DNA from: Dictyostelium discoideum
Taxonomy: Eukaryota
Length of the DNA: 64,000 nucleotides
Assembly: GCA_000004695.1 (NCBI GenBank)
Contig: CM000152.2
Span: 2,208,001-2,272,000, forward strand
Direction of reading: 5' to 3'
The notes beneath the pieces were generated by a model that saw only the letters and a list, made by a program, of their open reading frames with translations, made no database searches and was not told the DNA's origin. Shown here in pieces: positions 8,944 to 39,827 of this stretch. The translations under genes were made by a program, and so were the position numbers. Each line of letters starts with the position of its first letter. Position 1 is the first letter of the stretch.

Positions 8944-9026
8944 TCTTTTTCTAAACAAAGAAAAAAAAAACAAAAAAAAAAAACAAAAAAAAAAAAAAAA
9001 AAAAAGGAAGATAAATTATATAAATA

Positions 9027-9057
<31 letters not shown>

Positions 9058-9098
9058 AAATTCATCATTATTTTTTTAAATTATTTCTATTTACAAAA

Positions 9099-9113
9099 GG
9101 GGGGGGGGGGGGG
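9099..9113. repeat. G15 homopolymer (aaaaGGGGGGGGGGGGGGGagagg) between the convergent 3' ends of utp6 and the 9133..10055 gene.
   Basis: Direct reading. It is the only long G/C homopolymer in the window. It reads G15 on the plus strand and C15 in the mRNA of the minus gene. Confidence 0.9.
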
Positions 9114-9132
9114 AGAGGTAAGAATTTTATTA

Positions 9133-9617
9133 TTATGAATCGAGTGACACAGAAAGATCAACTATTTTTTTAATATTTTCTATTTTTGTATTAATTTGGT
9201 CAACTAAAACTGTTTTTTGTTTCTCTAAATCTGTTTCTTGTCTTTTTATCTTTTTATTTTCATTTAATAGCTATATATAGTTATAATTATTATTATTGTT
9301 ATTATTATTTTGGTTAATGTTAGTAACAAAAAATAATAAAAAGTAAAAATTAATAAGTAATTACATTTTGATAGATTTTTAATAATCTTTCCCTTTCAGT
9401 CATCTTTAAATCTATGATTTGTGACATTATTTGTTCTTCAGGATTAATTATACTTGATGGAGGTGCTCTTTTATCGTTGAGAATGGTTGGTTGTTCACGA
9501 AGTAATCTTTCTAATTCACTTAATCTAATTGAAATTTGTCTTTCTTGACATATTAATTGAAAATCACTCTATACAAATATATATGTATATATTAAAATTA
9601 AATAAAGTATTGTTAGT

Positions 9618-9661
<44 letters not shown>

Positions 9662-10002
9662 ATAAAAATAAAAATTATAATGATGTAAAATATATTACCT
9701 TTATTCTTTCTGATAAAGTTTGAAATACATTTGTATAAAGATAAGATAAAAATGATTTTGTATTTAAGTTATTATTATTTAAAGATGAGTAACAATCATA
9801 GAATTTCTGAAACGGTAATTCTGATAATGATTTATCTATTACTAAATCGTGAAACATTCTTAATTTTATCATTCTAATTCCTTCTATCTCTCCTGAAATA
9901 CATTTTAAAATGTCACTCTCACCAATTTCCAAATTTAATATACCTTTATCATAATCTACATTTAGTGTTGTGGTTTTTTCTATTGTATTATTACTTGTTT
10001 TG

Positions 10003-10042
<40 letters not shown>

Positions 10043-10055
10043 TATTATTATTCAT
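9133..10055 (-). CDS. Hypothetical protein of about 232 aa, with a globular N-terminal part and a coiled-coil C-terminus. Exons 9699..10055, 9365..9568, 9133..9270.
   Basis: ATG at 10055. Exon 1 is MNNNNSNN...TIEKTTTLNVDYDKGILNLEIGESDILKCISGEIEGIRMIKLRMFHDLVIDKSLSELPFQKFYDCYSSL...FQTLSERIK|, with donor aag|GTAATA. Exon 2 is SDFQLICQERQISIRLSELERLLREQPTILNDKRAPPSSIINPEEQIMSQIIDLKMTERERLLKIYQN|, with donor aat|GTAATT. Exon 3 is LLNENKKIKRQETDLEKQKTVLVDQINTKIENIKKIVDLSVSLDS*. All three are phase 0. No family assignment is possible from memory. Confidence 0.55.
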
Positions 10056-10122
10056 TGTTTTTTCTATTTCTTGTTTGTTTTTTTTTTTAGTTTTTGTTTT
10101 TTTTTTTTTTTTTTTTTAATAC

Positions 10123-10204
10123 TTAGGCGCCTAAATTTTTTTTTTTTTTTTTTTTTGAATGAAACCTAATTATTTTTTTTATTTTTTAACATTTAGGCGC
10201 CTAA
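10123..10204. repeat. Two copies of the perfect 12-bp palindrome TTAGGCGCCTAA (10123-10134 and 10193-10204), each followed by oligo-T, about 70 bp apart, upstream of the 9133..10055 gene.
   Basis: Direct reading: aatacTTAGGCGCCTAAattttt and aacatTTAGGCGCCTAAaatttt. The GGCGCC core sits in >85% AT DNA. Confidence 0.9.
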
Positions 10205-10848
10205 AATTTTTTTCCCAAGTATAATGAATCACCAGAAGAAAGACTAGCATAAATAAAACCAAGGAGAATGAACCGATGAAATGGCCCAATAAGTAACAAA
10301 GGACAGAAGACAAGAGAAAGAACCACACCAAAGTCAAAGAATTATATTATTCTAACAATAGAAATAAACTAATTAGAGGTAGAAAGAGAAGATAATTTTT
10401 CATTATTTATTTAAAATTTTTATTATTATTGGTTTGTTGTATTAAAATTAAAAATGTAAAATACCTAAATTTTTTTTTTTTTTTTTTTTTTTTCTCCCAA
10501 CCTCAATAATAAACTATTTATACAGATAGTGTATTAAAAAAAAACAAAAAATTATTATTATTATTAATAAAAAACAAAAAATTAATAAAAAATTAATACT
10601 AATAAAACTATTATTTATTTTATTTTTTATTTATTTATCTATTTTTTTTTATTTAATTATTTATAATAAAAATCTATTTATAATAAAACTATTATTTATT
10701 TGATTTTTTATTTATTTATTTATTTATTTTTATTTAATATATATTTATTTTTTGTTTTTTTTTTTTTCATTTACCTTGATTTTTAAAATCTTAGAAATTA
10801 ACTTGTTTGGATTAATTAATCAGAAGTTAAATGATTTTATTATTTTTT

Positions 10849-12534
10849 TTATATAATAAAGTCTGGATATTTTTCAAATAAAATTTTGTTATAAATTTGG
10901 CTATCGATTAGTGAGTTTAAAATTCTATTATCTTTTTTAGAATAACTTTGTAGTTTATCAATTGTAGTATCATATAATGTTGGTTTATCTTTAGGTTTTG
11001 TTGGAATTCTATCTATCAGTAATTGAACCATTTCAAAATTTTCATTCTTTATTGCAAAATTGATTGGATCTCTTGAAATTTGGATTTCAGGTAAATTTTC
11101 AAGAAAATATTTTAAAATATGTGTATAATTTTTTTGACAAACTTCATCAATGCATCTATATGTTAATTTTACTCTTTCACCATCTGAGCTATTAAATTTA
11201 TCAATAATGAATTTAGCAAATTCTAAATCTCCATCAAATGCAATATTAAAACAAAGATCATTAAATATATAATTTTCAAAATTTTCATAACAATATTTAA
11301 CAATTTCGAAACTTGTATTTGAAAAGTTAATACCAATAGGATTTAATCTTGATTTAAATGCTGATTCAACTAAATATTTAAATAATTGGAAATCTCTATT
11401 AGTAGATGCATATGATAAAAGTGAATTTGGGATAAACTTTAATGTTGGTTTAAACTTTTGTTTCACGTCTTCTAAATATTTCAAAGTTTCTAAATCATAA
11501 ACTTGATCAATCCCATAACTTAATTCTTTTGATTCTCCATTAAAACCAAGACAATTTTCTAAAAAGTTTTTAAAATGGTGAACTGATAAATTTGTTAAGA
11601 ATTTATAATTTGTAAAAATGGGATGAGTACATGATAAAGTCCTATTTGAAACTAACATTTGATAAACTTCAAGTGATTTATGGAAAACTCTATTATATGC
11701 AAAAACTAATTTATCCTGTCCTTTACTTGACTGATTTGGAAATTTATTAATAAATATTCTAGCCATTTCAATTGAACCAAGTACAACCATACGAACAATT
11801 AATTGATTTCTCGTTGTCCCAATATCACCATATTTACACTTGAATGGTAAATCATTACCATTCTCATCAACAATTGAATCCATTGATAAATCCATAATAG
11901 TTTGAAAACAAGACACTTTATTTAAATCTAAACAATCCATTATTGGTTGAAATTTTAATGATAATGGATTAGATTTTTGTTTTTCTTTCTCTTGTTTTGA
12001 AATTATTCTACAATTATTATTATAATTAAAACTATGATTTTTAAAACAATCAATTACATAAAGTATTGTATTAATATTATCTTGTTTAGATTGACACATT
12101 TTACCAATATATAATTGAAAATGATTAATATCAAATTTATAATTTTTAAATTTAATTAAAAATTCAATTATTTCAATACCAATTTTATTATTAAGTATAG
12201 ATAATTTTAAAATTTTATTTTTCTTTTTTTTTAATAAATTTTCATGATCATTATAAATTAAAATAAACTCTTGAATTGTAATTATATTTGATAAAATGAA
12301 ACTTTCTAAAATATAAATATCATTAAATTGAAATTTAAAATTAATTGCATTTTCATTATTTTTATTGAATAAATAACTTTGATAATATAAATTAAATAAA
12401 AATCTATTCTCTAAAATTCTAGTTAAATCTATATCTTTTAATTGTCTACCATTCCCTTTCCCATTTTTAACATAATTATAAATTATTGTAAATAAATATT
12501 TATTTTTAAAAACTTTAAAATATAAATTATCCAT
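10849..12534 (-). CDS. Dictyostelium-lineage protein with degenerate ankyrin-like repeats (561 aa, single exon).
   Basis: A continuous ORF with ATG at 12534. Its N-terminus MDNLYFKVFKNKYLFTIIYNYVKNGKG is typical of a large Dictyostelium paralogous family. Repeated ...LE.AK.II..F / ..N.E.VQLLIDR segments look like degenerate ankyrin repeats. Confidence 0.55.
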   Translation of the reverse strand: MDNLYFKVFKNKYLFTIIYNYVKNGKGNGRQLKDIDLTRILENRFLFNLYYQSYLFNKNNENAINFKFQFNDIYILESFILSNIITIQEFILIYNDHENLLKKKKNKILKLSILNNKIGIEIIEFLIKFKNYKFDINHFQLYIGKMCQSKQDNINTILYVIDCFKNHSFNYNNNCRIISKQEKEKQKSNPLSLKFQPIMDCLDLNKVSCFQTIMDLSMDSIVDENGNDLPFKCKYGDIGTTRNQLIVRMVVLGSIEMARIFINKFPNQSSKGQDKLVFAYNRVFHKSLEVYQMLVSNRTLSCTHPIFTNYKFLTNLSVHHFKNFLENCLGFNGESKELSYGIDQVYDLETLKYLEDVKQKFKPTLKFIPNSLLSYASTNRDFQLFKYLVESAFKSRLNPIGINFSNTSFEIVKYCYENFENYIFNDLCFNIAFDGDLEFAKFIIDKFNSSDGERVKLTYRCIDEVCQKNYTHILKYFLENLPEIQISRDPINFAIKNENFEMVQLLIDRIPTKPKDKPTLYDTTIDKLQSYSKKDNRILNSLIDSQIYNKILFEKYPDFII

Positions 12535-37749: not shown

Positions 37750-37771
37750 TTAATTATGATCTTGTTGCTGC

Positions 37772-37817
<46 letters not shown>

Positions 37818-39159
37818 GATGATAATCAATTAAATTATTATTTTCCATTAAATTAAATAATTGTAAATGATATGTATGAATTGAATCAACTAAAGTTGAA
37901 AAACTTTTAAATATTTCTCTTTTTTCTTTTTCATGATTTGATTTTAATTTAGCGATTGAAGTTCTAACAATATCTAATTCTTTAATTAAATGATCAATTT
38001 TAATTTGAGTTGATTCTCTTTCTTTTTCAATGATTGCTTTTTGATTTTTTAATTCACTTTGTAAATTGATTAATTCAGATTTCTTTGTTATATAGTTATC
38101 CCTATTCTTTTTAAGTGATTCATCGAGTGATAGTAGATCATCATTAAACTTTCTAATATCTATATCCAATTCATTGATTTGTCTATTTTGATCTTGGTTA
38201 ACTTTAGTAGCCTCTTTTGAGAGTTTTTTAGTGGACTTGTACAGTTTATTCTCCTTTTGATAAGTCTCAACCAATTCAAGAGTGGTGCGAATATTTTTAT
38301 TTATTTTTTCCAATTGTTTGGATTTATTTTGAAGTTTTGACATTGAGGGTTCAAATTCCTTCAAACCCTCTTTTTTAAGTGCCAATTTCTGTTTCATATC
38401 ATATAGCACCTTTTTAATTTTATCGGGTGATGGTACTATCAATACTTGCATTCTCGCGCACTCCTCAATCGTATTCTCAATGGAGGAGATTAAATTAAGG
38501 ATTTCCTGCTTGATTGATTCGTTTTTATTAGTTTTATTCAAGATGATTTTACATTGCTCATTTTGATAATGATTGGCTTGTTTTAAACGCTGATCGTCTT
38601 GTTGGTGTTGTTCTATCAATCCATTTACAATGAGGTCCTTTTCGTGCTTTTTCATCCTTTTATTCTCCAATTCTTCCAATAGTTTTTGTTCTTTTCCAAG
38701 TGTGATATCACGTTTTTCACAATTTGATTTATTTAATTTATCGAGATCAGAGTAGATCGATATCTTTAGTTCCATAAATTTGCCAAGGTTAATTATGCCA
38801 CTAAAGATTTTCTTTACTCTTGCCGCTTTTGGATTGTAGATATCTTTATAGGTGAAATCGAATAGTCCGACCACTTTCATCAGATTTGACATTGCTCTAA
38901 GGAATGTTATCTCTCCAATGGCTCCATCTTGTGTAAATAGTTCAATACCTTGTGTTAACTTATCCATACCATATTGACTGGGATGATGACTCGTTGATTT
39001 ATTATAGCCTGTAAATGTAACTAAAATATTTTCACAAAATTCTCTTATCATTGCTGATGTCGGTCGATTTAATTCTTCCATTGTAAATCTATGTCCCATT
39101 TCATCAAGACTTGTTATTATTTCATCATCTTCTAATATTGGAAAACTATATTTTGACAT
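37750..39159 (-). CDS. nuf2: Kinetochore protein Nuf2 (Ndc80 complex), 469 aa, single exon.
   Basis: The N-terminal CH-like domain is MSKYSFPILEDDEIITSLDEMGHRFTMEELNRPTSAMIREFCENILVTF...AARVKKIFSGIINLGKFME, comparable to human Nuf2 [23 protein letters not shown]...[20 protein letters not shown]. A long coiled coil and a C-terminal poly-Gln follow. The ATG at 39159 sits in A-rich context. Confidence 0.8.
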
Positions 39160-39788
39160 ATTTATTTATTTATTTATTTTATTGTTTTTTTTTTTTTTTT
39201 TAAAATTTAATAAGAAAGAAAAAAAAAAAAAAAAAAAAATTTAAAAAACATTAATTAATTTTCAAAAAAAAAAAAAAAAAAAAAAACAAAATAATAAAAA
39301 TTGGCGGGAAAAAACAATATGTGTAGATTTTTTACCTTTTTTTGTTTTTTTTTATTTTCTTTTTCCTTTTTTTGTTTTTTTTTTTATTTTACTTAATATT
39401 TTACTTTTTAATTTTTAAAATCTATTCTATTAATAATTTAAAAAAAAAAAAAAAAAAAAAAAGTAAAAAACATTTGCTTGAATTTTTGTTTAAGAAAAAG
39501 ATATTTTTTAAAAAAAAAAAGTAGGAGGATTATTACCAATGGCCTTTGTGATCGGCCAAAAGTTTGATGAAAATTTAAAATTAATTTTTTTTATTAAAAT
39601 TAATTTTTTTTTTTTTTTTTTTAAAAAAACAAAAAAAAAAAAAAAAAAAATGAAAATTTGAGATTAAAGTACAAGACCGAATTTGATAGAATTGTTTCTT
39701 TTTTAAAATTTTTTTTTTTTTATATTATTTTTGTGGTGCAGATATTCTTATTATAATCTATATGCCTTTGGTTATAATTTGAAATAGG

Positions 39789-39827
<39 letters not shown>

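Follow-up and report, generated by a model that had tools for sequence, protein, structure and literature searches.

E2F/DP heterodimers use an invariant RRXYD motif to recognise a GCGC core, and binding arrays define the E2F-specific core as NNSGCGSN (PMC4862756). A working E2F consensus is TTTSSCGC, in which mismatches are permitted in the T residues only (PMC3526358), and the human E2F1 motif obtained by systematic evolution of ligands by exponential enrichment (SELEX) is the dyad TTTGGCGCCAAA (PMC5449588). In animals and plants, the typical targets of E2F/DP and Rb include kinetochore genes. In Dictyostelium, Strasser et al. (2012) compared wild-type and rblA-null cells by mRNA-Seq, listed kinetochore genes including nuf2 as repressed by RblA, and named the E2F and DP genes; promoters were not analysed in that paper, which defines the RblA regulon by expression only (PMC3386910). 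Here we describe two identical 12-bp palindromes, TTAGGCGCCTAA, in a 64-kb stretch of Dictyostelium discoideum DNA (contig CM000152.2, positions 2,208,001 to 2,272,000; hereafter the window, with coordinates counted from its first letter). They lie upstream of DDB_G0279531, a homologue of the kinetochore gene nnf1, and we consider it probable, from the sequence comparisons below, that they form a tandemly duplicated, putative E2F/DP cis-element in the proximal promoter of this gene.

The palindromes share a 12-bp dyad, a (G/C)GCGC(G/C) core and flanking runs of T and A with the sites through which E2F/DP and Rb act in animals and plants, such as the overlapping inverted TTTCGCGCCAAA of DHFR and the E2F1 dyad from high-throughput SELEX. 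Like those sites, they stand no more than about 150 bp from the start codon of a gene with a cell-cycle or mitotic role, one that is derepressed without the Rb orthologue. They are unlike them in a base swap (TTA-GGCGCC-TAA), in their arrangement as a tandem pair 70 bp apart and in the 85–90% AT content of the promoter, and binding in Dictyostelium is predicted. The metazoan CDE/CHR system (DREAM/LIN54) also places mitotic and kinetochore genes under Rb-family proteins, and lin54 is among the RblA-regulated genes. A CHR-like TTTGAA is present between the palindromes at 10154-10159; this AT-rich word is expected by chance, its position and orientation are not conserved in two close relatives (assemblies L001 and L007, below), and we do not claim it as a CHR element.

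Two identical palindromes in one local duplication

The features around the pair are as follows.

9133..10055, minus strand: DDB_G0279531, Nnf1-family (MIS12-complex kinetochore) homologue with three exons; Pfam Nnf1, PF03980
10123..10134, no strand: proximal E2F-type palindrome TTAGGCGCCTAA, exact match, -68 to -79 from the nnf1 ATG; the constrained copy
10193..10204, no strand: distal E2F-type palindrome TTAGGCGCCTAA, exact match, -138 to -149 from the nnf1 ATG; the duplicated copy, decaying in relatives
10100..10213, no strand: local duplication of about 70 bp that yields both sites, with 44-nt units at 10100-10143 and 10170-10213

A first-pass annotation, made from the letters of the window, had reported two identical palindromes 70–150 bp upstream of the ATG of the gene at 9133..10055. 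Both are exact copies of TTAGGCGCCTAA at the positions it gave, and their measured distances from the ATG are 68–79 and 138–149 bp. The window holds no further copy, even at one mismatch; the number of matches expected by chance is 0.02, and two or more copies arose in none of 100 dinucleotide-preserving shuffles. Across the 64 kb, GGCGCC occurs in the two palindromes only and GCGC only six times. The two 44-nt units form a direct repeat with 89% identity (family D2), and because both palindromes sit in this single local duplication of about 70 bp, the pair reflects one event rather than two. The window is 21% GC, with long A/T runs and short AT-rich introns, so the oligo-T that follows each palindrome is uninformative.

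A related repeat is found at 10460-10490, where AATAC-CTAAA-T22 corresponds to the proximal unit (10118-10156) minus its 8-nt TTAGGCGC core. It is kept in L001 and not in L007, and is either a third, decayed copy or a chance poly-T match. A target-site duplication, with this repeat and the proximal unit bracketing an insertion, was considered and dropped, as the match is mostly poly-T and is not conserved in L007.

The downstream gene encodes an Nnf1 homologue repressed by RblA

The AX4 protein DDB_G0279531 maps on the minus strand to 10055-9699 (100% identity), 9568-9356 (95.8%) and 9261-9136 (100%), which identifies the window as AX4 nuclear DNA. Its spliced translation matches the Pfam Nnf1 domain (PF03980) with 49.4 bits against a cut-off of 23.7 (E = 6.5e-13), and precomputed assignments give the same domain for all nnf1 orthologues. 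Nnf1 belongs to the MIS12 complex of the kinetochore as one of its subunits. The NCBI label of the gene is 'hypothetical protein', and Table S2 of the RblA study annotates it as 'no significant homology' (PMC3386910). DDB_G0279531 is clearly an Nnf1 kinetochore homologue; it can be named, and it adds a member of the MIS12 complex to the RblA-repressed kinetochore set.

Table S2 puts the repression of DDB_G0279531 by RblA at 12.09-fold during growth and 11.2-fold during development, with 19 reads in wild-type versus 209 in rblA-null cells (PMC3386910). The palindromes, together with a T-poor island described below, occupy the 793-bp spacer between the ATG of this gene (10055) and the stop of an open reading frame (ORF) with ankyrin repeats (10849-12534, minus strand).

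An E2F-type word in all eight nnf1 promoters compared

The nnf1 locus was taken from a further seven assemblies, and the 900 bp preceding each ATG were searched for CpG-core words, with the following result (positions relative to the ATG).

D. discoideum L001: TTAGGCGCCTAA at -70; TTAGGCGCCTGA at -136
D. cf. discoideum L007: TTAGGCGCCTAA at -52; TTAACCGCCTAA at -116
D. cf. discoideum L006: TTTTTTGGCGCCTAAA at -49; TTTTAAGCGCCAAAG (also written AAGCGCCAAAG) at -116
D. citrinum L004: TTTTGGCGCAATT at -59
D. dimigraforme L005: AATTGGCGGTCC at -82
D. firmibasis L002: TTTTTGGCGGGTTG at -91
D. purpureum L003: ATTTTGCGCTTTT at -108

All seven promoters carry an E2F-type CpG-core word between -47 and -136, and with the window included the interval for the eight promoters is -47 to -149. 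Each word is the sole one in the scanned 900 bp, save for two hits at distances beyond 770 bp, one or both of them in upstream coding sequence. Several of the orthologous sites are canonical E2F sites (TTTGGCGC in D. citrinum, TTTGGCGGG in D. firmibasis), and the nearest of the more distant relatives have canonical TTTGGCGCC or TTTGGCGC near the ATG in the same promoter. The 4-mers in question occur in the window at no more than about 4e-4 per bp, that is, about 0.05 per 110 bp; as a rough estimate, the chance of finding such words across five independent lineages is about 1e-7.

Within the D. discoideum complex the two copies have fared differently. The proximal palindrome and its flanks (AAATTTAGGCGCCTAAGTATTAAAA) are 100% identical in the window, L001 and L007, the three assemblies whose intergenic DNA can be aligned, amid intergenic DNA that is 75–93% identical around the site and 75–88% identical in the spacer between the sites (three-way alignment). 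In the same alignment the distal site shows one to three changes, reading TTAGGCGCCTGA in L001 and TTAACCGCCTAA in L007; in L006 it reads TAAGCGCCAAAG. The layout of two sites spaced 64–70 bp apart is common to the window, L001, L007 and L006, and because these four assemblies of the complex all share it, the duplication predates their split.

A canonical site upstream of nuf2

A second kinetochore gene in the window is preceded by a site of the same kind.

37750..39159, minus strand: nuf2 (DDB_G0279553), second RblA-repressed kinetochore gene; Pfam Nuf2, E = 1.9e-33
39301..39311, minus strand: canonical E2F site TTTCCCGCCAA, about 145 bp upstream of the nuf2 ATG

In Table S2, nuf2 is repressed by RblA 8.57-fold and 16.88-fold (PMC3386910). 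The sequence TTTTTCCCGCCAATTTT, which holds GGCGGG at 39303, is the sole zero-mismatch match to TTTSSCGC in the 64 kb. The site reads TTTTTTCCCGCCAATTTTT (TTTCCCGCCAA) in D. discoideum and D. cf. discoideum and ACTTTGGCGCCAATTTTT (TTTGGCGCCAA) in D. firmibasis; the orthologous sites lie about 164 bp (L010) and about 152 bp (L011) upstream of nuf2. In each species compared, it is the only CpG-core word in 1.2–1.4 kb of spacer.

The nuf2 site resembles the nnf1 sites in belonging to an RblA-repressed kinetochore gene, in its comparable distance (-145) and in the GGCGCC core of its D. firmibasis version; it differs from them in being canonical and asymmetric in D. discoideum and in occurring as a single copy. 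Since GGCGCC in D. firmibasis takes the place of CCCGCC in D. discoideum at this position, the GGCGCC dyad falls in the same site class.

Short patches richer in GC are also present upstream of nuf2, at 39520-39570, 39650-39700 and 39730-39790, outside any ORF of at least 60 aa. One of them contains an imperfect inverted repeat, CCAATGGCC...GATCGGCCAAAAG. Rfam has no match for the patches at gathering thresholds.

Match of the palindromes to E2F/DP site definitions

Both palindromes contain the E2F core GGCGCC, which fits the (C/G)GCG(C/G) and NNSGCGSN definitions. Compared with the human E2F1 SELEX dyad, TTAGGCGCCTAA is identical at 10 of 12 positions, with the same GGCGCC core within the same 12-bp dyad. 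On both strands of both copies, TTAGGCGC fits TTTSSCGC with a single mismatch that falls in a T position. Hexamers of the form SSCGSS occur at three places only in the 64 kb, namely the two palindromes and the GGCGGG at 39303, each of them no more than 150 bp upstream of the ATG of nnf1 or nuf2, both kinetochore genes. The first-pass annotation had offered a dimeric transcription-factor site pair as one possible identity; these data support that suggestion and specify it as a pair of E2F/DP-type sites in the promoter of a kinetochore gene that RblA represses. Literature searches for Dictyostelium E2F motifs turned up no promoter analysis and no E2F binding data, and searches with the sequence strings of the palindrome and the island found nothing relevant.

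Several observations weigh against this assignment. The base adjacent to the core is A/T in TTAGGCGCCTAA (TAGGCGCCTA) versus T/A in the SELEX optimum (TTGGCGCCAA). SSCGSS hexamers number 3 in the window versus 1.68 expected from shuffles, and TTTSSCGC matches with one mismatch number 24 versus 23.8; because these motif counts are not above chance, the case for E2F rests on position, gene identity and orthology. The sites in D. purpureum (TTTTGCGC) and D. dimigraforme (TTGGCGGT) are imperfect. On the side of expression, DDB_G0279531 has few reads, and Table S2 scores its cell-cycle profile only as 'cold-repressed?'; the table lists at least two genes of the window, DDB_G0279531 and nuf2, as RblA-repressed (PMC3386910). 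The RblA-dependence of DDB_G0279531 could be indirect, and occupancy of its sites by E2F/DP is a prediction from the comparisons above.

The off-optimum flanking base and the chance-level frequency of one-mismatch matches would suit a different dimeric factor, unrelated to E2F/DP, that binds GGCGCC dyads while RblA acts on the gene indirectly. We regard such a factor as decidedly unlikely: sister species have the canonical, non-palindromic TTTGGCGC and TTTGGCGGG at the orthologous position, which a dyad-specific factor should not tolerate, GGCGCC alternates with CCCGCC at the nuf2 E2F site, and nnf1 and nuf2 are both RblA-repressed. A functionless accident, in which a chance GC word was copied by local duplication, would agree with the single 70-bp event behind the pair, with the decay of the distal copy and with the unremarkable SSCGSS count. 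It has next to no likelihood given that the proximal copy is invariant in a diverging spacer, that E2F-type cores occupy the same promoter interval in 8 of 8 orthologous promoters, and that the gene responds to RblA.

A proposed model for the putative duplicated E2F/DP element

If the pair is a duplicated E2F/DP element, the winged-helix heterodimer of E2F (DDB_G0284129) and DP (DDB_G0276799) would read the GGCGCC core of the dyad, each subunit contacting one CGC half through its RRXYD recognition helix. RblA docked on E2F would keep nnf1 off outside the mitotic and mid-developmental proliferative window, and the derepression of nnf1 by about 12-fold on loss of RblA would be a direct effect exerted through the dyad. 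The proximal site (-68) would be the working, constrained copy; the distal copy (-138), which the roughly 70-bp duplication created within the D. discoideum species complex, would be redundant and eroding. The palindromic, 'A-inserted' form TTA-GGCGCC-TAA, as opposed to TTT-GGCGCC-AAA, would be a lineage-specific variant derived from a canonical ancestral site. The island next to the pair lies outside the element; it is young, confined to the D. discoideum clade, and drifts no more slowly than the spacer.

Such a model would bear out the expected mechanism and would not surprise a cell-cycle specialist; the cis-element is of a known kind, in a new instance. Literature searches found no cis-element tied to individual RblA target genes, and the two footprinted E2F-type sites, at nnf1 and nuf2, make direct control by RblA/E2F testable. 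The locus also illustrates turnover of E2F sites by duplication, palindromisation and decay in an extremely AT-rich genome, in which CpG words stand out. It is unlikely that the A-inserted dyad TTAGGCGCCTAA represents a Dictyostelium-specific mode of E2F/DP or DEL-like binding that differs from the canonical one.

The T-poor island

Beyond the distal palindrome the spacer changes composition.

10205..10345, no strand: compositional island, T-poor on the plus strand, GC 37%; lineage-specific, unconstrained, function unsupported

The unusual, T-depleted composition reported in the first-pass annotation is borne out: positions 10214-10342 are 52% A, 19% C, 19% G and 11% T. Only four segments of the window combine at least 35% GC with 12% or less of A or T; the island is one, and the other three overlap long ORFs encoding low-complexity hydrophilic protein. 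The accompanying statement that neither strand has an ORF with normal codon usage needs one correction: the minus strand has open frames of 41 and 52 codons. They stay open only for want of A, which every stop codon requires, on this A-poor strand, and they are not conserved. Short ORFs on the plus strand, by our own reading, also differ among the window, L001 and L007.

The island can be aligned only among the window, L001 and L007, and is absent from the loci of L006, D. citrinum, D. dimigraforme, D. firmibasis and D. purpureum. Within the island, identity is 0.89 and 0.79 (0.77 and 0.66 when gaps are counted) versus 0.93 and 0.84 in the adjacent flank, and indels of 1, 2, 4, 10 and 12 nt in the three-way alignment break its frames. 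The flank at 10403-10518 is slightly better conserved than the island. There, a minus-strand ATG at 10403 opens a hydrophobic small ORF, MKNYLLFLP... (MKNYLLFLPLIS...), whose start is shared by the three assemblies, and a conserved TATAAATAG box (10510-10518) lies about 110 bp upstream of this ATG in all three. The frame meets a stop at codon 19 in AX4 and at codon 21, followed by a frameshift, in L001; it runs for 50 codons in L007 only. An exhaustive HMMER search with a 55-codon minus-strand frame returned only one tandem-repeat artefact (E = 6e-4), Pfam gave nothing for the 41-aa ORF, and two independent NCBI annotations call no gene at the island.

Rfam gave no match across the whole window at gathering thresholds or in 9000-11500 at E up to 10. 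ARAGORN found no tRNA, so insertion of a tRNA-targeted retroelement is rejected. The plus strand of the island forms a poorer fold than any of 200 shuffled sequences (z = +2.56), and the minus strand shows nothing out of the ordinary (z = -0.55); in the folded alignment of three orthologues, the minus strand has no compensatory pair and the plus strand hardly any structure. BLASTN with 10100-10520 found no second copy of the island in the 64-kb window, only poly-T runs, and none was found in the fetched loci. The best-conserved 21-mer of the island hit two bacterial contigs among metagenome contigs, chance matches only. A GC-rich patch of D. firmibasis (L002 3630-3700, gattgatgtcgctccaaataaggttggtagggtactgcaacacgaagcttgggac...), directly after the stop of the upstream ankyrin-like gene, is without sequence kinship to the D. 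discoideum island.

In the AT-rich spacers of Dictyostelium, an island richer in GC is a classic sign of a non-coding RNA (ncRNA) gene, and some ncRNA genes of Dictyostelium have an upstream DUSE, with the consensus [AT]CCCA[CT]AA. The island, with or without the palindromes, could in principle be a small gene of this type, for example a DUSE-driven pol II or pol III transcript on the plus strand, like the Class I RNAs and snRNAs with which it shares a GC-richer composition and an upstream CCCA word. That word, TCCCAAGT (10213-10220), is followed about 35 nt further by the TATA-like CATAAATAAAA; DUSE elements lie about 60 nt upstream of ncRNA start sites (PMC7919456), and the transcript would start about 60 nt downstream of TCCCAAGT and end at a T5 run near 10396. 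We see very little likelihood in this. TCCCAAGT does not fit the consensus, a pattern scan with that consensus found no DUSE near the island, and in L001 TCCCAAGT is replaced by unrelated sequence. Unlike DUSE-driven genes, the island also has no Rfam match and no stable or conserved fold; it is conserved no better than its flanks and is missing in five assemblies. The earlier proposal of a small ncRNA gene with palindromic flanks is supported neither by geometry, both palindromes lying on one side of the island, nor by covariation, of which three orthologues show none; we conclude that the island is not a structured ncRNA gene, nor is it flanked by the palindromes.

We conclude that the island is unconstrained DNA of recent date, specific to its lineage, and that a decayed small gene or an insertion is a possible source. 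The third option of the first-pass annotation, a remnant of an inserted element, would be in keeping with DNA that is lineage-specific and unconstrained, and no second copy is present in the 64-kb window. A decayed remnant might derive from a minus-strand gene for a hydrophobic small ORF, with its TATA box at 10510-10518 and ATG at 10403, from a plus-strand hydrophilic small ORF divergent from the E2F promoter, or from a fragment of a mobile element. The island is restricted to one lineage, and its 37% GC, versus about 12–15% in spacers, suggests youth; TATAAATAG and the ATG with its conserved MKNYLLFLP start persist in all three assemblies, with the 50-codon ORF intact in L007, and the composition is coding-like for the plus strand, as the three comparable segments indicate. 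On the other hand, each of the three assemblies has its own reading frames, whichever strand is read, with indels of 1, 2, 4 and 10 nt; the HMMER search gave its artefact alone, the window holds no second copy, and neither NCBI annotation has a gene here. A remnant is accordingly a possible but doubtful origin. It would be unlikelier still that the island is a very young transcription unit that arose in the D. discoideum lineage beside the duplicated E2F promoter and is driven by it, divergently or in tandem. The candidates are the small ORFs MNH(Y)HQKKETSI... (plus strand) and MKNYLLFLP... (minus strand), both broken in AX4 and each still whole in a single wild relative; if true, gene birth and death would have been caught in the act at a cell-cycle promoter.

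Elsewhere near nnf1, a run of 15 G residues at 9099-9113 lies between the convergent 3' ends of a UTP6-like gene and nnf1. Such a run is very unusual at 21% GC, and it might be a terminator or a G-quadruplex-type feature.

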